Source: a phage. From it: a stretch of 47,773 bases of DNA. The notes below the pieces were generated by a model. It had not been told where the DNA came from. It was given only the letters and a program-made list of their open reading frames with translations, and searched no databases. Positions 871-14,579 of the stretch are shown here, one piece after another; positions within the stretch are counted from its first letter, which is position 1, and each line of letters begins with the position of its first letter. The translations under genes and the position numbers were made by a program. The stretch lies in assembly GCA_036604865.1 (NCBI GenBank), contig GCA_036604865.1_4856.1. One strand, given 5' to 3'.

Positions 871-1217
871 TATGTCACCAGTGCGAAATCGGGCGGCTCA
901 TTTCTTTGAAAAGTGTTGCCATAGTTAATCACATTCAGAATCTGGTTTGCGCCAGCCGCCAGCGGGTCAACTTCTGCCACCGTGCCAATCATGATGTAAT
1001 CACCAACCTTCGCGCCAGTGTATTCTGTCCAGAAGGTATTCTTCTGCACAATCTCATTACCTTTCGCGTCGGTCGATATATCATCGTTAAAGCCATAATC
1101 GCACATGATGCTCACTGGCGCGTCAAAAGTAGGCTTTCCATACTTGTCCGTGCCGCTTTTGTGCCATATGGTGCATGGCTGCGTGTAGCTCCAGTTAGCC
1201 AGTGAAGTCATTTGCAT
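870..1217 (-). CDS. putative head closure / head-tail joining protein
   Basis: 115-aa ORF translationally coupled within the head-tail joining block; function by position. Confidence 0.4.
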   Translation of the reverse strand: MQMTSLANWSYTQPCTIWHKSGTDKYGKPTFDAPVSIMCDYGFNDDISTDAKGNEIVQKNTFWTEYTGAKVGDYIMIGTVAEVDPLAAGANQILNVINYGNTFQRNEPPDFALVT

Positions 1218-1600
1218 TTACTCCCACGCACAACCGCAAACCACGGCTTGCCGCTTCCGTCAGGGTCTTCAACCAAATCGCCAGTGCATCCGGCTGTATC
1301 CAGTAGTTTCATCTGATTGTACAACGCCACCCACGGCTTACTGCCATACGCGAATGATTGAGATGCGCCAGATGGTGCGCTCTGACTGGTAACGTAGCGA
1401 CCAGCGGTATTAGCGCTAATCAGGATTGAAGCCCACAACATGATCGCATTTTGTCGGCATTCATCGTTTGGATAGTTCAGCTCAAGGCATTCCTTGATTG
1501 ACTCCACAAGACACAGAATGCCAGACGCATCTGTTGTGGTGATAGTCATCCCGCGAGATGCCATCTGACTGACCAGTTCTTCAGGTGTTGGTGCTGTCAT
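1208..1600 (-). CDS. putative head-tail connector (adaptor) protein
   Basis: ORF track 1208-1636; internal Met (MTAPTPEEL...) at 1600 is the more likely start; position in joining block. Confidence 0.4.
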   Translation of the reverse strand: MTAPTPEELVSQMASRGMTITTTDASGILCLVESIKECLELNYPNDECRQNAIMLWASILISANTAGRYVTSQSAPSGASQSFAYGSKPWVALYNQMKLLDTAGCTGDLVEDPDGSGKPWFAVVRGSKCK

Positions 1601-1865
1601 TTCTCTTTGACTCCCGGACTTTCCACCACATTTCAAATAGATTCTTTATTACCAGAGACAGCGCACCTAGGATTGACGCTACTGCCGCCCACTCTGTCAG
1701 GCTGTGTGGAATCATGGCCTCAAAATAAGATTGCGTGACAGGTGTTTGCTCTGCGACTTTCAGACCAATGCCAGTGCCAATAGAAGCATACCCAGCCTTA
1801 TCAATCACCTGTCCTGTCGTCCCGCTTATAACTTGCTCTGCGGCCTGTCTTAGTGTTTCGTTCAT
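1581..1865 (-). CDS. hypothetical protein with C-terminal hydrophobic helix
   Basis: 94-aa ORF; hydrophobic stretch WAAVASILGALSLVIKNLF; weak ribosome-binding site. Confidence 0.35.
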   Translation of the reverse strand: MNETLRQAAEQVISGTTGQVIDKAGYASIGTGIGLKVAEQTPVTQSYFEAMIPHSLTEWAAVASILGALSLVIKNLFEMWWKVRESKRNDSTNT

Positions 1866-1897
1866 TGCGAGTCTCGCTGATAATATGTTTCCAGCAC

Positions 1898-2338
1898 TTA
1901 TAGATTTGAATCAGCGAAAAAACGATGGCAACCACGCCAAGAATAATGTCCAATTTCGCCACCCCATTTAAAAGTGATGGAAAGGATGAACAGATGGATG
2001 CCGATAATAATAAATGCGTACTGCGCATGAAGCGGCGTTTCTACAGGCGTGATAAATTCCCATACGAATGACTCTATCGCTACCAGCCATTCGTAAAGGC
2101 TCATCGTCAGCACGCAGAGCGCCATCTTTGTACTTTTGCGCAGCGCAATAGCCGGAAACGACCAGACCATAGACTGCGCAAGGTAATACAGATATTCGGC
2201 GGGAAATGAATCAACAAGCACCCATCCAAGATACACAGACATCACCATTGCCGGAATGAACACCAGAAACGCGACCATGCCTGTGCAGGCAAAACCAAGC
2301 ACATACATGATCATGATGGCAACGTCTGCGCCGAACAT
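1898..2338 (-). CDS. multi-pass integral membrane protein, function unknown
   Basis: 146 aa with at least four hydrophobic helices; start codon overlaps stop of upstream small ORF (TAATG). Confidence 0.5.
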   Translation of the reverse strand: MFGADVAIMIMYVLGFACTGMVAFLVFIPAMVMSVYLGWVLVDSFPAEYLYYLAQSMVWSFPAIALRKSTKMALCVLTMSLYEWLVAIESFVWEFITPVETPLHAQYAFIIIGIHLFILSITFKWGGEIGHYSWRGCHRFFADSNL

Positions 2339-2457
2339 TATTTTTTACCGCGCGATGGTGAACGGGTGGAGCCGTTTGGCTTCACTGCGCCAGTTTTGCC
2401 GCCAGTTTTGGTATTGCCAGTAGCGCGTGAGCGAGACGGACCGTTTGTTGAACCCAT
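2338..2457 (-). CDS. small basic protein (39 aa)
   Basis: Not in ORF track (<60 aa); strong SD caggagatttaaacATG; MGSTNGPSRSRATGNTKTGGK...; coupled to the membrane protein gene. Confidence 0.35.
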   Translation of the reverse strand: MGSTNGPSRSRATGNTKTGGKTGAVKPNGSTRSPSRGKK

Positions 2458-2504
2458 GTTTAAATCTCCTGTTGTTTGATTAGCATGATTTTAGCATATT
2501 CCTG

Positions 2505-2533: not shown

Positions 2534-2574
2534 TAGTGACGTAGAAACAACAATAAATGTTAGAGGTGATGAAA

Positions 2575-2748
2575 ATGGAAGGTGAAACAGAAGTTGTGGT
2601 TGTTGATGTTTTTTATCAAGCATCAGACGAAGGCATTCCAGCTCGCTGGTGCTGCGAGTTTATTCGCGATGGATGGACTGATTGTGAATATTTTGATAAC
2701 TCAGAAGATGCATATAACTATGCTTACTCACATGGATTTCAAGGATAA
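2575..2748 (+). CDS. small acidic Cys-containing protein
   Basis: ORF track 2557-2748; ATG at 2575 is best placed after SD agagg; first gene of the plus cassette. Confidence 0.45.
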   Translation: MEGETEVVVVDVFYQASDEGIPARWCCEFIRDGWTDCEYFDNSEDAYNYAYSHGFQG

Positions 2749-2751
2749 ACA

Positions 2752-3561
2752 ATGAAAACACTCAGCAAAATCTATTCAGACAAAGAAACGCGCAACGGCA
2801 TCGCTGTTAACAAAACCTATCTCGTGCCAGTGGAGCAAATATATCTGGAGCCGGGATACAACATCCGTGAAGCAGATGAGCAGCATGTGGAATATTTCGC
2901 GCAGTGCTGGGAATCAGGTCAGCCATTGCCAGCATTAACAGTTATTCCAGATGAGAAGGGAATCCGCATTCTTGATGGGCAGCATCGCTATCTCGGCGCA
3001 CTGCGTGCCATTGAGCGTGGCGCGCCAATCGCTCGCATTGAGTGTAAGGATTTCACTGGAGATGAGGCGGATAAAATTGCCTTCATGGTGTCATCCAGTC
3101 AGGGCAAGCAGCTTGACCCGTTTGAACGTGCAAAGGCTTACACGAGACTGAAAGGCTTTGGCTGGACGAATGAAGAAATCGCCAAGAAGGTGGGTCGTTC
3201 AGTATCTGACGTGCAGATGCATCTGTCACTGGGTGATGTGCCTGCGGAAGTAAAAGCGCGAATCAGTGCCGGGCAAATCAGCTATGCAAATGCCGTAGCA
3301 GTAACGCGTGAACATGGCGATGATGCGGTAAAAGTTATCGACGAGGCAGTCGAAGAGGCCAAAGCACAAGGCAAGGATAAGGTCACTGCAAAAGTGCTCA
3401 AGTCGAAAAAGATTAAGCCAGTAGACCGCCTGATTGAGTTATTGAAGCCAGCCGACCATGTAATTCTCCCCGCTGGTCATGTAGTGGCTGAGGACGAGGA
3501 ATTTATTCAGATTCCTGTTGCTGATATTCACGAGGTTATGGCAATTCTGGAGAAGATGTGA
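2752..3561 (+). CDS. ParB-like nuclease domain protein
   Basis: 269 aa; ILDGQHRYLGALRA matches the ParB N-terminal domain core (DGxHR); SD aagga upstream. Confidence 0.6.
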   Translation: MKTLSKIYSDKETRNGIAVNKTYLVPVEQIYLEPGYNIREADEQHVEYFAQCWESGQPLPALTVIPDEKGIRILDGQHRYLGALRAIERGAPIARIECKDFTGDEADKIAFMVSSSQGKQLDPFERAKAYTRLKGFGWTNEEIAKKVGRSVSDVQMHLSLGDVPAEVKARISAGQISYANAVAVTREHGDDAVKVIDEAVEEAKAQGKDKVTAKVLKSKKIKPVDRLIELLKPADHVILPAGHVVAEDEEFIQIPVADIHEVMAILEKM

Positions 3562-3752
3562 TGAGCAAGTATGAAGAGTTGGACTTGAAGATATTGCAAA
3601 TGCTTTCTGTTAAACCAACCCCTGTTTTTGATATATGGCTTAAGTTTCGTGATGATGTTAGAAACATTACGGTTATTGATCGGAGGATGCAGGTGCTGAA
3701 AAAGAAAGGTTTTGTGTACAACGTTCGTGGATGTGGTTGGGTTAAGCTATGA
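3558..3752 (+). CDS. hypothetical small protein
   Basis: 64-aa ORF with ATGA overlaps to both neighbouring genes. Confidence 0.45.
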   Translation: MMSKYEELDLKILQMLSVKPTPVFDIWLKFRDDVRNITVIDRRMQVLKKKGFVYNVRGCGWVKL

Positions 3753-3922
3753 CACCAGAACAATTCATCGAAAAACAACTTCGTGCCAAGCTGCCTGAAA
3801 TCGACCAGATGGCAATTGATGCGGCAATTCAGTATTACAAGCGCAATCAGAGCGCAAAGAAGGGTGGCATTTTTGAAGAATGCCTGAAGGTTGCAAAGCA
3901 ACACATGATTAAGGTGAAGTGA
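3749..3922 (+). CDS. hypothetical small protein (57 aa)
   Basis: Not in ORF track; fills the gap between 3752 and 3922 with start/stop overlaps on both sides; MTPEQFIEKQLRAK... Confidence 0.35.
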   Translation: MTPEQFIEKQLRAKLPEIDQMAIDAAIQYYKRNQSAKKGGIFEECLKVAKQHMIKVK

Positions 3923-4458
3923 TGAAACTAAAAATCAGCAAACTATTACTTGAATCAGCGTTAATATTTCAGGCGCGCAACGATATTCGTTACTATCTGA
4001 ACGGTATCTGCTTTATGCCTGATGGTCGCATTGCATCAACTGACGGTCATCGCGCATTTATTGGTTGCAGCCATGACAATACGCTGACAAAAAATGTGAT
4101 TATCAAGATTGGCAAATCTCCAACAAAACGCTATGACTACGCCATCATTGACACCAAGTCGAAAATTGCAACGTATCATGATGAAGCTGGCGTGATGGTT
4201 GGCGATGGTATCAGCGAAGAGATTGATGGCCGATTCCCTGACATTGACCGCGTGATACCAAAAGAAACGAAAGCAGCAGAGGAAATAGGATTCAATGCTA
4301 GCTACCTTGTTGATATTGAGAAAGTGGCGAAGCTGTTTAATCCTAAATTCTGTGGTGTCAAATTTGAACTGAATGGGAATACAAATGCCGCAGTTTGCTG
4401 TCTTAGCTCGCCATCTGGAGAGACTGCGAAGATTGTTGTTATGCCTATGCGTCTGTAG
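3922..4458 (+). CDS. hypothetical protein
   Basis: ORF track 3919-4458; ATG at 3922 overlaps the previous stop (TGATG); no domain recognised. Confidence 0.5.
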   Translation: MKLKISKLLLESALIFQARNDIRYYLNGICFMPDGRIASTDGHRAFIGCSHDNTLTKNVIIKIGKSPTKRYDYAIIDTKSKIATYHDEAGVMVGDGISEEIDGRFPDIDRVIPKETKAAEEIGFNASYLVDIEKVAKLFNPKFCGVKFELNGNTNAAVCCLSSPSGETAKIVVMPMRL

Positions 4459-4464
4459 CAATCA

Positions 4465-4490
4465 AAAGCCCCATCACGGGGCTTTTCTTT
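4465..4490. terminator. bidirectional rho-independent terminator (agcccc-atcac-ggggct plus T-run)
   Basis: Hairpin 4467-4483 flanked by A-run and T-run, between convergent genes ending at 4458 and 4493. Confidence 0.55.
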
Positions 4491-4492
4491 TA

Positions 4493-5323
4493 TCACGCCA
4501 GATAAGTATCATCCTCAAACCATGACACATATGCATTGATATTCTGCACCGAAGTATCCAGTGATGTTATGCGAAGCAAATACGTCGTATTTGGTGCCAT
4601 GATAATCTGCTCGCCGAGCTTCGCCTGCGAGTTACCCTGACCCTGATTCGATGCGTTGCCCTCACTGTACGTCGCCGCCACCGTCAGTTGCCCAATACTT
4701 GTGATCGTAGAGCCAGTCAGAAGCTGTGCCGTAACTGCCTGCGGCGTTATATCGTTTGGATTGTTAATCTCCGCCGCCGTACCGCCGGTGGCAACTGCGC
4801 CGCGATAAATTGACGCAACAACACCTTTCCCTGTATAACCAATGATGCGCTGGTTAAATATCACCTGTTTTGTTCCGGTGATAAAGATGCTGTCAAGGTT
4901 TGAGCTGCCAGCAACATCAGTTACTCTGCGCGATGCAGTGAATAGCTTTCCTTGCTTGTTAGCAAACTCTGCATAGGACTGCGCGACAACCTGACTTGAT
5001 GGTACTGATGTGGCAGATCGCCATACCAGGACTTTCAGGGATGCAATGCCAGCTGGTATTTGTGACTTAATCACCTTCAGTCGCAGCGCCACGCCATAAT
5101 AATTATTATTGTTGACGTCAATCCAGAAATCACCGGATGCAAACGGCGATACCATTACGGAAACGGAGCCGCTTGTTAATGGCTCATAGCCACCGGAAGA
5201 ATTTAGCGGCACAATTTGTACCTGCAATGCTGACCAGTCAGCTGACATGGTTTCGCTAAGCAAAACCTCTCCGTCATCCGGAGTTGCGTTTATTTCGTAC
5301 CTGACAGCCATAGAAACCCCCAA
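4493..5323 (-). CDS. putative virion structural protein
   Basis: 276-aa Ser/Thr/Gly/Val-rich ORF downstream of the capsid gene block; no catalytic motif. Confidence 0.45.
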   Translation of the reverse strand: MGVSMAVRYEINATPDDGEVLLSETMSADWSALQVQIVPLNSSGGYEPLTSGSVSVMVSPFASGDFWIDVNNNNYYGVALRLKVIKSQIPAGIASLKVLVWRSATSVPSSQVVAQSYAEFANKQGKLFTASRRVTDVAGSSNLDSIFITGTKQVIFNQRIIGYTGKGVVASIYRGAVATGGTAAEINNPNDITPQAVTAQLLTGSTITSIGQLTVAATYSEGNASNQGQGNSQAKLGEQIIMAPNTTYLLRITSLDTSVQNINAYVSWFEDDTYLA

Positions 5324-5348
5324 TAAAAAACCCGCATAATGCGGGTTC
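5321..5348 (-). terminator. rho-independent terminator on minus strand (cccgca-taa-tgcggg then T-run)
   Basis: Read on the minus strand the hairpin is followed by ttttttatt; lies between genes 5352-5549 and 4493-5323. Confidence 0.45.
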
Positions 5349-5636: not shown

Positions 5637-6443
5637 ATGAAAACAAGAAAAGAAGCCGCGCAAGAAGCAAGGGTTGCTGGACTGAAGCAATTTGTGTGTG
5701 AATGGATTCCATGCTCCGTATGTGGTGGAACTGTGTTTTTTACAGCATCAGGCGGATGCAAGCATTGCGTATACGAAAGAACGAGAGCAAGAAGATCTAC
5801 TGCTGAATACAAAGAAAAGATGAAGCAGAAAAACAAAGAAGAGTGGTTAAAAAATAAAAACAACCCAGAATTCAAGGCTATTAAGAAAGAAAGAGATAGG
5901 GAGTTTCACAAGAAATACAAAAAAAGATTAAGCTCAGACATAAAAAAGATGGAGGAATTTCTCAGAAGAAGAAGGGATGCGTACCGTAAATGGTATTACT
6001 CTGAGAAAGGCAACAAAAAGGCTCTGGATAACGTCAAGCAATGGCAAAAGAAACACCCCCACCACGTGTTCCTAAGGAAGATGCTTGAAAGAATTGATGT
6101 GAGGTTGTCTGACGTTGCCATTGATAAAACCGTTGATGATGTGCTTGGTTATACAAAAAGTGATTTTATAAAACACATAGAGTCAACTATGGAGCCATGG
6201 ATGAGCTTTGATAATCGTAGTTGCTGGCATATAGATCACATACTTCCAGTGGACTGGTTTGTAAAAAACAACCTTGTCTACCCAGAACTGGTGAATTCAC
6301 TACATAACCTCAAAGCTGAGCCAGCAGAGTTCAACTGGAAGAAAAACAGGAAGTGGCTGCGCAAGGATATGACGCAATGGGAATTCTGCTACATGCTGCA
6401 ATATATGGTGTATGGTGAAATCAGGTATAAAGAAGGGGGCTAA
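5637..6443 (+). CDS. HNH homing endonuclease
   Basis: HNH core CWHIDHILPVDWF; N-terminal Cys cluster; ATG at 5637 after SD aggag; lone plus-strand gene inside the head block. Confidence 0.65.
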   Translation: MKTRKEAAQEARVAGLKQFVCEWIPCSVCGGTVFFTASGGCKHCVYERTRARRSTAEYKEKMKQKNKEEWLKNKNNPEFKAIKKERDREFHKKYKKRLSSDIKKMEEFLRRRRDAYRKWYYSEKGNKKALDNVKQWQKKHPHHVFLRKMLERIDVRLSDVAIDKTVDDVLGYTKSDFIKHIESTMEPWMSFDNRSCWHIDHILPVDWFVKNNLVYPELVNSLHNLKAEPAEFNWKKNRKWLRKDMTQWEFCYMLQYMVYGEIRYKEGG

Positions 6444-6454
6444 TACCCCCTTTA
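6431..6454. terminator. bidirectional terminator (ggggg-ctaata-ccccc)
   Basis: Hairpin 6435-6450 between convergent HNH and capsid genes. Confidence 0.5.
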
Positions 6455-6463
6455 AATTACATC

Positions 6464-7537
6464 TTAAGCCAATGGTGTTTGCGTCCCGTAACCATTAAAC
6501 ACTTTTGACTTCCCTGCAAAATCGCGTCTCACCTGAAGACCAAAAGCTGACCATACCATAAAGTTAAAGTTATCGTGCGGATTGTCACGGGCTGCCGCAT
6601 AGGTGGAAACAGGCTGAGCAACACGCGGACGGATGTACATGTCGTTGCGAACATAGCCAACGAAATGGTTGCCAGTCAGCAGGAAGTTGGTGCCAATCTT
6701 GCCGATGCGACCATTGCCGAACTGAGTGATGTACTGCTCAACCGTGCCGCCTTTGAAGCCAGCTGCATCAGAATACGGACGCATGAAGCTGCGACGTACT
6801 GCCGGGGAAACCCACAGAGTCACCTGCTCAAATACGTTCTGCGCATCCATAATAGCCTGGAAATCCTGATTGAAGAAGGTCACGATTTCGTCTGGCGTTG
6901 CGGTTTGCAGGTCGATATTCAGGCCGCCGGAAGCATTCAGGTTGACCTGAATAGTGTTCGGGTGGTTGGTGATACCGTAGCCAGTGTAAACGCCGTTCAC
7001 GTTCAGAGTCTGGTCGCCGGTCAGCAGATACTGCGCCATGTCAGAACGCAGGTTGAAGGTGACGTTGGCCTGATCGTCCAGCAGTGGGTCGAAGCCTTCA
7101 GACTGCATACCCAGCAGTTCGCGCCATTCGCGGCTGTAGCCAGTCTTGAAGATTGGAATCACATCGCCAGTGTAATCGTAGCGAGTTTTATCCAAATCTT
7201 CCGGTTCCTGACCAGACAGGGTGCGGACGACCTTACCAGCATCGGAAGCAATGCGGCTGATCGCCACAGTCTTACCGATATTGATGTTTGCCGCGATACC
7301 CATCAGGTCAGCCATCATATCCTGACCAGCTTCGTTGCGGAAAACGCGGGTGGTGACGTTGTCCACGTCGCGCCAGTAATCTTTCGTTACCAGCGCGGTG
7401 GCGTTAACACCGTAGGTTTTTGCCAGTTCGGCTTCTGCATTGCAGAACACTTTGCGGTCGATGGTCAGATGTTTCCACTGGTCAGCCACCACTGCGGAGT
7501 TGGCTACCAGGTCTTTGGTAAAAATAATCTTTTCCAT
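6464..7537 (-). CDS. major capsid protein
   Basis: 357-aa ORF with SD ggag, directly downstream of scaffold-like and decoration-like genes; size and position typical of HK97-fold capsid proteins. Confidence 0.6.
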   Translation of the reverse strand: MEKIIFTKDLVANSAVVADQWKHLTIDRKVFCNAEAELAKTYGVNATALVTKDYWRDVDNVTTRVFRNEAGQDMMADLMGIAANINIGKTVAISRIASDAGKVVRTLSGQEPEDLDKTRYDYTGDVIPIFKTGYSREWRELLGMQSEGFDPLLDDQANVTFNLRSDMAQYLLTGDQTLNVNGVYTGYGITNHPNTIQVNLNASGGLNIDLQTATPDEIVTFFNQDFQAIMDAQNVFEQVTLWVSPAVRRSFMRPYSDAAGFKGGTVEQYITQFGNGRIGKIGTNFLLTGNHFVGYVRNDMYIRPRVAQPVSTYAAARDNPHDNFNFMVWSAFGLQVRRDFAGKSKVFNGYGTQTPLA

Positions 7538-13130: not shown

Positions 13131-13155
13131 CAAGCCCCTTATGGGGCTTTTTTAT
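13131..13155. terminator. rho-independent terminator (agcccc-ttat-ggggct then ttttttatt)
   Basis: Hairpin 13133-13148 and T-run; terminates the plus cassette; overlaps the 3-prime end of the spanin gene. Confidence 0.55.
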
Positions 13156-13630
13156 TGCGTAATGAGTCGTACTGAAGCTGACAACTCAATCCAGCGTTGT
13201 AATACCTGTCAGCTTCTTCCGCTGTTCGTCGATAAGCATCGTTGCTTTCTTCAAGCATCCCTCCAAGCATAATGATGACCTCGCGGGTTGTCTTGCCAGA
13301 TGACTCAGTTCCGGTATATTGGCTTGCGAGCTGGCGGATTCTATCGAGTTCCCCGCGCATCCGCTTAGCACTGGACTCAGCATTAACAGCATCATTACGC
13401 GCAGCATCAATCCTTTGTTGTGCGTCGGCCTGAATCTTTTGCAGTTCTGCATTGCGTCTTTGTTCCTCTTGTTCGTCTGCTGCCTTCCGTTCTGCGATGG
13501 CTTTTGCATATCCAGCGGCATATTGTTGCTCACCATAGCTGGATACCTTATTTGCTACCCACAATGCGCCAGCAGCAACAATTATAATAATTGCCAGTGG
13601 TCGCCAGTATTTAGCGAGAATCGACATCAT
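13139..13630 (-). CDS. i-spanin (Rz-like)
   Basis: N-terminal membrane anchor WRPLAIIIIVAAGALWVA then long coiled-coil; directly downstream of endolysin; contains an embedded lipoprotein ORF. Confidence 0.6.
   Translation of the reverse strand: MMSILAKYWRPLAIIIIVAAGALWVANKVSSYGEQQYAAGYAKAIAERKAADEQEEQRRNAELQKIQADAQQRIDAARNDAVNAESSAKRMRGELDRIRQLASQYTGTESSGKTTREVIIMLGGMLEESNDAYRRTAEEADRYYNAGLSCQLQYDSLRNKKAP
13186..13407 (-). CDS. o-spanin (Rz1-like lipoprotein) embedded in the i-spanin gene
   Basis: Alternate frame inside 13139-13630; signal peptide with lipobox LSGC (MLRVMMLLMLSPVLSGCAG); ORF track 13186-13536, start trimmed to Met at 13407. Confidence 0.55.
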   Translation of the reverse strand: MLRVMMLLMLSPVLSGCAGNSIESASSQANIPELSHLARQPARSSLCLEGCLKKATMLIDEQRKKLTGITTLD

Positions 13631-13850
13631 TGCGCAGCCTCCTGTTTTCCTTTCTCATGCCGTGCATTTTGCCGAACATTGATAACACGAGTACGGAATA
13701 GCTTATCCCTTTAACCACCGAATCTGGTATCTCGGATTTTAGGTCGTCTGGCATAAACATCCATACATGCGTCATGGAGTCAGGCCACAGCTCAAGGTAT
13801 GAGCAAAATGAAAGCCAGACACCAATGAACCAGTTGCTTAGCTTTTTCAT
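13611..13850 (-). CDS. putative holin-like membrane protein
   Basis: 79 aa; two hydrophobic segments and a basic C-terminal tail (KMHGMRKENRRLRND); sits between endolysin and spanin. Confidence 0.35.
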   Translation of the reverse strand: MKKLSNWFIGVWLSFCSYLELWPDSMTHVWMFMPDDLKSEIPDSVVKGISYSVLVLSMFGKMHGMRKENRRLRNDVDSR

Positions 13851-14311
13851 GCCACAGCTCCGCCAGCCTCTTTGTATACCTGAATCAGCTTATCCAGTTT
13901 CTGCTCATGCTGACCATAACCAGCGCCCGGTAATGAAGCCCAGCGGGAGCGGCATTTATGGATAGCACCAGCAATGCGACCAGCCTCAATATCAGCAGTG
14001 GCCTTGCATTCACGGATTAGCTGCATTGCAATGGCGTCCTGCGATGCGGGGGAGAAGTCAGGCAGGCGCAGTTGCTTTTTGTATGCATCATAAAACTTAG
14101 CCAGCACCTGATAGCGCCCGGCGGCGGTGGATTTGATGCCCAGCTTAGGCAGGCTAATCAGCTTGCGCGGGTGATCAGAATAGTCAGTAAACAGTGAGCC
14201 GCCGACAATCACATCATAACCATGATTATTGGTTTTCTGTCGCCCGTTATCAGTCCCCTCGCTGTACGCCAGCATATCCAGAAACGCCTTCATGTTTTTG
14301 CTAATAGCCAT
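13847..14311 (-). CDS. endolysin, lambda R-like lytic transglycosylase
   Basis: KAFLDMLAYSEGTDNGRQKTNNHGYDVIVGG...DYSDHPRK...WASLPGAGYGQ closely parallels phage lambda R including the catalytic Glu in SEGT; ORF track start trimmed to Met at 14311. Confidence 0.8.
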   Translation of the reverse strand: MAISKNMKAFLDMLAYSEGTDNGRQKTNNHGYDVIVGGSLFTDYSDHPRKLISLPKLGIKSTAAGRYQVLAKFYDAYKKQLRLPDFSPASQDAIAMQLIRECKATADIEAGRIAGAIHKCRSRWASLPGAGYGQHEQKLDKLIQVYKEAGGAVA

Positions 14312-14579
14312 ACCAGTAAACCTCTTTTTCAGCTTTGCGTTTTGCTTTGTTGTCGGTCTTCTCGCCCCACACAATAAAGTGCGCAACGGCACATGAGAAG
14401 CAGCGGAGATTGTGTTTCTTCAGGAGCGTTGACTTGCGGAACGTGTCAATGCCAATGTCAGTGGCAAGGCTTGTCAGCGCATCAAACTGATTCTGTGTTG
14501 TCTCGGTAGTGATGTAAGGCGATATATCAACGGCATCGGTGATTCCAAGCGTCTCCACGCCGCGTTGCGATAGTTTCAT
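14301..14579 (-). CDS. hypothetical protein upstream of endolysin
   Basis: 92-aa ORF with strong SD aggagg five nt before ATG; not obviously membrane-spanning. Confidence 0.45.
   Translation of the reverse strand: MKLSQRGVETLGITDAVDISPYITTETTQNQFDALTSLATDIGIDTFRKSTLLKKHNLRCFSCAVAHFIVWGEKTDNKAKRKAEKEVYWYGY

Follow-up and report, generated by a model that had tools for sequence, protein, structure and literature searches.

A translationally coupled gene pair, a hidden overlapping gene and a small membrane module between the head and neck genes of Skatevirus-like siphophages

A coupled gene pair in the head-tail joining block

We analysed two small genes, p39 and p146, that lie side by side on the minus strand between the head and neck genes in a 47,773-nucleotide (nt) stretch of phage DNA (contig GCA_036604865.1_4856.1 of NCBI GenBank assembly GCA_036604865.1), which in its full length is referred to here as the window. 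The window represents a Skatevirus/Deseoctovirus-like siphophage, the first 6 kilobases (kb) of which show 85-92% nucleotide identity to 207 phage records; these records are Salmonella, Escherichia and Shigella siphophages of the cluster Vi II-E1/Skatevirus/Deseoctovirus/Swiduovirus, and Klebsiella relatives match the same 6 kb in parts only. In annotated relatives, the order of transcription runs from the capsid genes through a small post-capsid protein and an opposite-strand cassette (ParB-like, methylase and others) to a 'lipoprotein', a 'membrane protein', an adaptor, the neck genes, the tail terminator and the major tail protein. In the window, a plus-strand cassette (positions 2557-4458; ParB-like and others) is located upstream of p39-p146, and downstream of p146 follow p94, the gene for a DUF7370 head-tail adaptor-like protein, the neck genes and the tail-terminator genes. 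The pair had been predicted, from the sequence of the window alone, to comprise a multi-pass membrane protein and a coupled small basic protein on the structural-gene strand between connector-like genes and a plus-strand cassette. Both the setting and the two open reading frames (ORFs) of 146 and 39 codons are as this original prediction described them (Table 1), and we concur that a multi-pass membrane protein is unusual in a head-tail joining block. What it missed is that p39 and p146 are part of a four-gene membrane module, that a hidden gene, orfX, lies over the 3′ end of p146 and that p39 contains repeats. There is good support for the view that p39, p146, orfX and p94 together form an inner-membrane module between the head and neck genes of Skatevirus-like siphophages.

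Within the pair, p39 lies upstream and p146 downstream in the direction of the minus strand. The ribosome binding site ascribed to p39 is indeed strong, consisting of a Shine-Dalgarno (SD) sequence, AGGAG, located 8 nt before the ATG, which is retained as AGGAG or AGGGG in 33 of 34 relatives. p146 has no SD sequence of its own, and the two genes share the predicted stop/start overlap, TAATG. The p39 reading frame is intact in all 34 of these relatives from IMG/VR, the TAATG is likewise kept, and the only indels (+15 and -12 nt) are in-frame; in nearly all lineages the two genes either overlap by their stop and start codons or are separated by no more than 2 nt. Variable sites at the first, second and third codon positions number 14/15/34 in p39 and 53/28/86 in p146, and non-synonymous relative to synonymous polymorphism (pN/pS), determined from 16 haplotypes, amounts to 0.10 in p39 and, over codons 1-127, to 0.14 in p146. 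Because the reading frames are intact, the indels in-frame, the variation concentrated at third positions and pN/pS low, we consider p39 and p146 to be real protein-coding genes, and it is well supported that they are translationally coupled late genes under purifying selection. A fusion of p39 and p146 by -1 frameshifting on an AAAAAA run was also considered and is ruled out, as most relatives have AAGAAA at this place.

The hydropathy profile of p146 contains three strong hydrophobic blocks, the first of which is long enough to accommodate two helices. Where at least four helices had been expected, AlphaFold2 (21-sequence alignment, mean predicted local distance difference test (pLDDT) score of 76) gives five, at residues 2-19, 22-44, 48-65, 70-96 and 104-126, followed by a disordered tail in which pLDDT falls below 50 from residue 127. 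All lysine and arginine residues are located either in the loop 66-71 or in the C-terminal tail, and on the basis of this placement and the positive-inside rule p146 is predicted to be a five-helix inner-membrane protein with its N-terminus outside and its C-terminus inside. Features conserved throughout the family, including its most distant members, are E48-Y49, Y82-E83-W84, E89-S90-F91-x-W93, P98-V99-E100, Y107 and H115. P98-V99-E100 forms part of a conserved loop, ITPVETP, that is predicted to face the periplasm. The family is narrow, comprising 48 clusters at 90% identity, nearly all of 146 amino acids (aa), and the long contigs that carry them are of ~45-50 kb. A profile search of 1.84 billion representative proteins yielded 9 representatives at 50% identity, all from one phage family, and tblastn searches with the most distant homologue located no further phage group. 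Neither Pfam, NCBIfam, PADLOC nor the PDB contained a match to p146, no specific fold match was obtained, and sequence searches of the PDB found nothing. More generally, Pfam, NCBIfam and PADLOC gave no significant family for p146, p39, p94 or orfX, and the PHROGs that were matched are uncharacterised families only; for p146 and p39, no Pfam or NCBIfam match and no functionally named PHROG was found, and with this no membership of a holin family.

The designation of p146 homologues as a 'lipoprotein' can be traced to a PROSITE PS00013 pattern match in the Vi II-E1 record, which also listed four transmembrane (TM) helices and a 'signal peptide'. This label is wrong. A lipobox, [LVI][ASTVI][GAS]C, would come after a basic n-region and contain an invariant Cys. 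The residues concerned are L14-G15-F16-A17-C18, in which Gly and Phe at positions -3 and -2 make the lipobox unfit, the N-terminus (MFGAD) is acidic, and Cys18 is replaced by Leu, Val or Ile in many homologues (FALTA, FVVTG, YIITG).

Truncated or frameshifted p146 alleles of 83-123 aa are present in several isolates or assemblies (BFVD A0A173GC27 of Salmonella phage 64795_sal3; P0032, P0035, P0044, P0047 and P0048), consistent with frequent loss of function either in nature or during propagation. In Salmonella phage PHA46_2 (PP216514.2, 4001-4956), p146 has a 43-codon internal deletion, the p94 ORF runs out of frame into an apparent adaptor C-terminus and an intact DUF7370 adaptor is missing from the annotation; this region probably reflects an assembly problem or a defective genome, and was not used as evidence.

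The smaller partner, p39 (MGSTNGPSRSRATGNTKTGGKTGAVKPNGSTRSPSRGKK), contains nine Lys and Arg residues and neither Asp nor Glu, has no export signal, and is probably a disordered, cytoplasmic basic peptide. An octapeptide is repeated at its two ends, as GSTNGPSR (residues 2-9) and GSTRSPSR (residues 29-36). Profile searches identified 25 relatives of 35-81 aa on similar contigs, which have in common the octapeptide GS[ST][NQ]xP[SG]R at both ends; the homologue in Yersinia phage P400 contains a third, degenerate copy. Within a single protein the two end motifs co-vary (NQ/NQ, QS/QS, NG/NG, NS/NS, SSNG/SSNG). At the DNA level, the two copies are identical at only 1-4 of their 8 third codon positions and use different Ser codon families, making gene conversion an unlikely source of the co-variation. 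Since the codons of the copies differ in this way, their likeness is kept at the level of the peptide rather than by recent gene conversion. The most distant relatives have a longer coupled ORF upstream (65-aa and 104-aa versions), which is otherwise unrelated but retains a similar C-terminal tail, S-T-x-R-P-x-R. These patterns argue for a bivalent peptide, both ends of which may be recognised by one kind of site, and p146 is the obvious candidate for the partner, as the two genes are coupled and are lost together.

orfX, p94 and the ancestry of the module

Reading all three frames across the p146/p94 junction revealed orfX, which spans the 3′ end of p146, the 32-nt gap between the genes and the 5′ end of p94 (Table 1). 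Its product, MDIILGVVAIVFSLIQIYKCWKHIISETRNERNTKTGRRASYKRDDRTGD (opening MDIILGVVAIVFSLIQIYKCWKHIISETRNER...), has a TM helix at its N-terminus and a basic tail after it. The reading frame is open in 114 of 114 loci and, with its build unchanged, in eight diverged lineages; for comparison, only 7% of positions within the long ORFs of the window have an open +1 stretch of 51 codons. All clades, Klebsiella phages lacking p146 among them, retain the start signal, in which GG(G/C)GG precedes TTG by a 5-nt spacer. The SD-like sequence lies within the p146 motif KWGGEIG, which would explain why this motif is invariant despite its position in the low-confidence C-terminal end of p146.

The frame under selection switches exactly at the orfX TTG. 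Over the preceding 60 nt, variable sites counted by p146 codon position number 3/3/10, whereas from the TTG to the p146 stop codon they number 11/3/4 in the p146 frame and 3/4/11 in that of orfX; for the 32-nt gap the orfX frame gives 2/2/5. Similarly, pN/pS is 0.10 for orfX codons 1-30 and 1.59 for p146 codons 128-146, which share the same DNA, the last ~19 codons of p146 thus being unconstrained. Further downstream, pN/pS is 0.16 in the p94 frame as against 1.35 in the orfX frame. The Klebsiella branch has lost p39 and the body of p146 by deletion, and the last ~30 codons of p146 stay in place with stop codons before them in the p146 frame and no start codon. Together with the SD sequence and the TTG, this remnant is exactly orfX, with p94 following. 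As Klebsiella phages keep the SD sequence, TTG and orfX without p146, synthesis of the product mainly by frameshifting from p146 is ruled out. No match to orfX was found in PHROGs, and its annotation is absent from every record inspected, including the carefully annotated Skate genome. Judged by this conservation, orfX is an overlapping gene that had so far gone unannotated.

Two clusters of 178-aa proteins (P0002, 15 members; P0006, 8 members) are p146::orfX fusions that arise from 1-nt deletions in the T6 or G4 run at or just downstream of the orfX start (equivalent to positions ~1930-1965 of the window). These could be either homopolymer sequencing errors or natural frameshift variants.

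The fourth member of the module, p94, contains in its N-terminal part a conserved Gly-rich motif (IDKAGYASIGTGxG), and further along a TM helix at approximately residues 57-81 and a basic C-terminal tail. AlphaFold2 models one confident TM helix, with pLDDT of 86-93 in residue blocks 61-80, within a helix that extends over residues 43-91. The TM helix and basic tail (EWAAVASILGALSLV...KVRESKR) resemble the second transmembrane domain and C-terminal tail of the phage 21 pinholin S21. Weak matches to the P21 pinholin family (PF04971) were obtained with 10 of 27 homologues, the best of which, at 15.3 bits, is below the gathering threshold of 26, and alignment of p94 with S21 by hhalign gave a probability of 38% over the TM helix and tail. 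In contrast to the pinholin, p94 has a single confident TM helix, and there is no signal-anchor-release (SAR) endolysin partner here, the N-terminus of the lysozyme not being hydrophobic. We therefore regard the likeness to pinholins as a lead from sequence comparison, and not as membership of that family.

The order of genes around the module is fixed in relatives, which have the major capsid protein (MCP), a small post-MCP protein, a small coupled ORF, a multi-TM protein of 146-166 aa, a single-TM protein of ~90 aa and the DUF7370 adaptor. Yersinia phage P400, the p146 homologue of which is 48% identical, has no plus-strand cassette, and the MCP gene is followed by genes for a 77-aa protein, a 47-aa p39 homologue that is TAATG-coupled to the gene before it, the 146-aa protein, an 87-aa p94 homologue and the adaptor. 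This order is also kept in four more lineages reached via p39 homologues and in metagenomic relatives reached by profile search only, in which the stop codon of the upstream ORF overlaps the multi-TM start as TGATG. In P400 and in two further loci (L041 and L042), the pair is embedded in an operon with overlapping or abutting neighbours. In the more distant Feofaniavirus Eho59 and mEp021, which share the DUF7370 adaptor, the adaptor gene comes directly after a post-capsid or capsid gene and membrane genes are absent there. From these gene orders, the module is best read as a clade-specific but ancient insertion at the head/neck boundary, upstream of which the ParB cassette was later inserted in the lineage of the window. 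Because distant relatives keep the order without a plus-strand cassette, the pair is unlikely to be a recent moron. A moron is an autonomous insert with a promoter and a terminator of its own that occurs patchily between genomes which are otherwise collinear. The earlier suggestion of a moron is apt insofar as the pair is accessory, patchily distributed and equipped with a putative promoter of its own, but fits less well with genes that are ancient, syntenic in relatives at ~30-48% identity and located inside a head-neck operon where the cassette is missing.

The pair is present in O-antigen/Vi-dependent phages of Salmonella, Escherichia, Shigella, Citrobacter and Yersinia, and absent from capsule-dependent Klebsiella relatives, which keep orfX and p94 and have intact morphogenesis genes. 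One of these relatives, Klebsiella phage vB_Kpn_ZCKp20p, also has a gene for a TnpB-family RNA-guided endonuclease on the opposite strand among its neck genes (5819-6949).

Genomic setting and candidate regulatory elements

Table 1. Coordinates of the genes and sequence elements discussed, as positions in the window.
Feature	Position	Strand	Description
p39	2338..2457	minus	39 aa; PHROG 34767 match; annotated in phage Skate as CPT_Skate_045
SD sequence of p39	2466..2470	minus	AGGAG
p146	1898..2338	minus	146 aa; PHROG 14688 match (labelled 'lipoprotein')
orfX	1801..1953	minus	50 aa; TTG start 1953..1951, stop 1803..1801; +1 frame relative to p146
SD-like sequence of orfX	1959..1965	minus	GGGGTGG, 5 nt before the TTG
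p94	1581..1865	minus	Single-pass membrane protein; 3′ end overlaps the start of the adaptor gene by 20 nt
DUF7370 head-tail adaptor-like gene	1208..1600	minus	Pfam PF24085, E = 2e-36; ATG at 1600; first neck gene of the operon
Putative extended -10 promoter	2488..2496	minus	TGCTAAAAT; read from the sequence
Lysis cassette	14579..13139	minus	92-aa ORF, lambda-R-type lysozyme, 79-aa two-TM holin-like protein, Rz with embedded Rz1-like lipoprotein ORF

Upstream of p39, a putative extended -10 element may serve as the promoter for a unit consisting of p39, p146, orfX, p94 and the neck genes. The motif TGnTAAAAT is located at the equivalent place in CF-SP1 and in Klebsiella phage ZCKp20p; a consensus promoter scan, which needs two hexamers, did not pick up the element in the window. 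No terminator was found in the window between p39-p146 and the neck genes, and an Rfam scan of positions 1400-2800 gave no match, that is, no known RNA element in this region. The divergent promoter region (2458-2556) contains two direct copies of TCTACGTCA (minus-strand reading), at 2506-2514 and 2537-2545, that are 31 nt apart. One of these overlaps the -35 hexamer TTGACG (2505-2510) of a plus-strand promoter, TTGACG-17-TATAGT, and both copies are kept in CF-SP1 and Klebsiella phage ZCKp20p; they may form an operator pair that controls both divergent units. Strong terminator-like hairpins are located at 5328-5348 (minus strand, after the 65-aa post-capsid gene) and at 4464-4486 (plus strand, after the plus-strand cassette), and together isolate a 276-aa minus-strand gene (4493-5323). 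Neither this gene nor the plus-strand cassette is found at this position in Yersinia phage P400.

The lysis cassette is ~11 kb from p39-p146. Within it, the gene for the 79-aa holin-like protein comes after the lysozyme gene, and the lipobox of the Rz1-like ORF is VLSGC. The 92-aa ORF upstream of the lysozyme gene encodes a non-membrane protein, which in relatives is called 'endolysin' or 'lysozyme' for no evident reason.

Dispensability and possible functions of the module

Deletions of the p146 homologue are available in Skatevirus seszw, the genome of which has been reduced by iterated Cas9-driven deletions, with the mutant genomes deposited (Yuan et al., PMC9825161). The homologue, seszw gene 20, is 96.6% identical to p146. 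In mutant 300L.2 (36.6 kb), gene 20 is cleanly removed and p39 is intact but two residues longer (...SRGKKYL*); the start and TM helix of orfX are lost, and p94, all neck genes and the lysis genes are kept. A junction-spanning query detected this designed deletion in at least 39 sequenced viable mutant records. Other seszw records contain further lesions in gene 20, comprising a different deletion in one and a 100-nt disruption in two. As the gene 20 deletion also destroys orfX, its phenotype cannot be assigned to one gene. Mutants 6t1 and 6t3 are among the 't' mutants, which originate from a screen for faster host killing, one mutant of which out-competed the wild type (PMC9825161). Both 6t1 and 6t3 are without gene 20. 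A viable small-plaque mutant (MZ375330.1, protein P0106) contains a spontaneous in-frame fusion, p39(1-28)::p94(29-94), that eliminates the C-terminal motif of p39, p146, orfX and residues 1-28 of p94. p39 itself was never targeted in seszw because it is unannotated there. p94 is kept in the smallest seszw genome and was never lost in the seszw mutants inspected, apart from its N-terminus in MZ375330. This retention may reflect a function of p94 itself, or only the need for translation into the overlapping start of the adaptor gene, and the retention of frame in MZ375330 suggests that translation through the 3′ half of p94 into the adaptor start is what must persist.

Hence p146, orfX, the C-terminus of p39 and the N-terminus of p94 are dispensable for plaque formation on S. 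Typhimurium. It is well supported that the p39-p146 pair is accessory, being neither a virion component nor a requirement for assembly, for DNA injection or for lysis as such. For p146, any part in virion structure, assembly or injection is effectively excluded, and for p39 it is unlikely; the injection accessory that had been among the first suggestions does not survive the viable deletions of the p146 homologue in seszw, nor the Klebsiella branch, in which the morphogenesis genes are intact without the pair. No virion proteomics for this phage group was found in the literature.

With regard to function, we weakly favour, at a probability of roughly 0.3, the reading that p39-p146 is a late accessory of the inner-membrane state or of lysis timing, resembling an antiholin; confidence in this choice is low, and superinfection exclusion is almost as likely. 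According to the favoured reading, the pair would be synthesised late, along with the proteins of the neck and tail, and would insert into the host inner membrane, where the module would tune the membrane state and the timing of holin-triggered lysis as a lysis-clock or antiholin-like accessory comparable to P2 LysA or T4 RI/RIII. p39 would act as a bivalent cytoplasmic partner produced in excess from its strong ribosome binding site, and p146 would be made in smaller amounts by termination-reinitiation. What inclines us towards lysis timing is that the genes are co-transcribed late, that their neighbours are holin-like, that an embedded gene is part of the architecture and that P2 LysA provides a precedent. 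The products of orfX and p94 have the build typical of holins, namely a small TM protein with a charged C-terminal tail, the embedding of a gene out of frame is characteristic of lysis cassettes, and seszw mutants without gene 20 and other genes kill faster.

Known systems provide partial parallels. P2 LysA is a four-TM protein, described as 'nonessential; affects timing of lysis', that is encoded between head-completion and tail-completion genes (PMC3091744). Like LysA, p146 is a non-essential multi-TM protein encoded in a late operon; both are of ~140 aa with 4-5 TM helices, and both genes lie in the interval between head completion and tail completion. However, hhalign of the p146 profile with LysA gave a probability of 0.09% (E = 0.58), indicating no homology, lysA is located inside a lysis cassette (Y-K-lysA-lysB-lysC) whereas the lysis genes are distant here, and LysA has no coupled basic peptide. 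In phage T4, the small soluble cytoplasmic RIII and the membrane-anchored RI are both non-essential modulators of a holin encoded elsewhere. This combination of a small soluble protein and a membrane partner, with the holin elsewhere, is reminiscent of p39 and p146, but there is no sequence similarity, and RI, instead of five helices like p146, comprises one SAR anchor plus a periplasmic domain. To our knowledge, there is no report of lysis inhibition in this phage group. A third parallel is lambda Rz/Rz1, since orfX is likewise a small membrane-protein gene out of frame in its neighbours with its own SD sequence and start, and the window itself contains Rz with an embedded Rz1-like ORF; in contrast to Rz1, orfX bridges two genes instead of lying inside one, and its product, with an N-terminal TM helix and no lipobox, is not an o-spanin.

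Several observations weigh against a role in lysis timing. The phage has a complete lysis cassette at a distance; co-loss of the holin with p146 was looked for in the Klebsiella branch and not seen, the cassette being equally conserved there, and there is thus no signal of co-loss. The strictly conserved intramembrane Glu and His residues of p146 fit a transporter, channel or enzyme better than an antiholin, and faster killing by the seszw mutants cannot be attributed to gene 20, as ~4 kb of other genes are also gone. That p146 might be the holin of the phage is ruled out by the full lysis cassette with its own holin elsewhere and by the viability of the deletion.

The closest competitor is superinfection exclusion, which we regard as possible at low confidence. 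p146, with p39, would sit in the inner membrane and block DNA entry by later phages of the same or a related kind, as T4 Imm, P22 SieA and HK97 gp15 do; these are small non-essential inner-membrane proteins that are patchy among related phages. p146 is similarly a non-essential multi-pass inner-membrane protein, and the presence of the pair follows the host group, from O-antigen/Vi-dependent phages, which have it, to capsule-dependent Klebsiella phages, which do not. The conserved ITPVETP loop and a periplasm-facing acidic surface could contact the incoming tape-measure protein or DNA conduit, and the putative extended -10 element, which is of sigma-70 type and stands beside a divergent promoter in the clade of the window, makes pre-late expression conceivable. 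On the other hand, Pfam, PHROGs and PADLOC revealed no similarity to a known superinfection exclusion protein or PADLOC model. Moreover, the known exclusion genes of virulent phages are early, whereas p39-p146 lies in a late operon, syntenic over deep divergence, and in P400 and L041 is located within the head-neck operon with no promoter gap. The coupled peptide is a further difference from Imm, SieA and gp15, its role is not explained by exclusion, and relatives already carry a separate annotated Imm-like 'superinfection immunity' gene in another cassette.

Another function in the host envelope or in host takeover is also possible, if less probable and purely inferential: p146 could be a small transporter, channel or intramembrane enzyme that operates via E83, E89 and H115, and may act on or with p39 or counter a membrane-acting host defence. 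E83, E89 and H115, together with Y82/W84, S90-F91-x-W93 and P98-V99-E100, are conserved throughout the family, including its most distant members, the co-variation of the p39 end motifs in spite of differing codons points to specific recognition of both ends by one partner, and the two genes are tightly coupled and lost together. Against this, no catalytic or transport family was recognised by sequence or fold, p146 is small, with five helices, and p39 has no export signal.

For p39, a more elaborate scheme can be drawn, which we consider doubtful. The peptide may act as a 'strap' that binds, through its two co-evolving terminal octapeptides, two equivalent sites on p146, or on a p146 dimer, and gates this Glu/His-lined five-helix protein; with orfX and the pinholin-like p94, the pair would then make up an undescribed four-component membrane device, co-expressed with the neck proteins, that links the state of the membrane (be it a lysis clock, inhibition of lysis or exclusion) to how far virion assembly has advanced. 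At the opposite extreme, and a shade less credible still, p39 might be a mere leader ORF that feeds ribosomes to the p146 start and has no function as a peptide. The strong SD sequence of p39 and its lack in p146, the overlap or minimal gap in nearly all lineages and the largely different sequence of the upstream coupled ORF in the most distant relatives are as such a leader would require. However, its low pN/pS, the restriction to in-frame indels, the conservation and amino-acid co-variation of octapeptides that differ in third positions and Ser codon families, and the survival of a similar S-T-x-R-P-x-R motif at the C-terminus of the 65-aa and 104-aa versions in distant relatives all speak for selection on the peptide.

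A role in morphogenesis or in the virion, whether by tethering head-tail joining to the membrane, by assisting ejection or injection or, in the case of p39, as a packaged DNA-binding peptide, would accord with the position of the genes between capsid and neck genes on the same strand, with the strongly basic composition of p39 and its S-P-x-R turns, which recall the SPXX-type turns of DNA-binding tails, and with the constant retention of p94 in the seszw mutants inspected, but is very improbable given that deletions of p146 and of the p39 C-terminus are viable, that the Klebsiella branch, Feofaniavirus and mEp021 assemble without the pair, that multi-pass membrane proteins are unexpected in tailed-phage virions and that p94 may be retained only for its coupling to the overlapping adaptor gene.

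Skatevirus-like phages are widely isolated and have been proposed for the biocontrol of Salmonella, E. coli and Shigella. The block described here has so far been annotated in them as 'lipoprotein', 'membrane protein' or 'hypothetical', with p39 missing from many records, and its new elements are the hidden overlapping gene orfX and the co-varying ends of p39. For the engineering of these phages, p39, p146 and orfX, but not p94, are safe to remove or replace. The module offers a compact and genetically tractable example of membrane genes amid neck genes, of a gene overlapping two neighbours and of a peptide with co-evolving ends. If a role in lysis timing or exclusion proves true, it would represent a new, unrelated protein family for those functions, and the conserved Glu/Glu/His residues of p146 and the bivalent peptide would also allow for a novel activity resembling that of a transporter, channel or enzyme.

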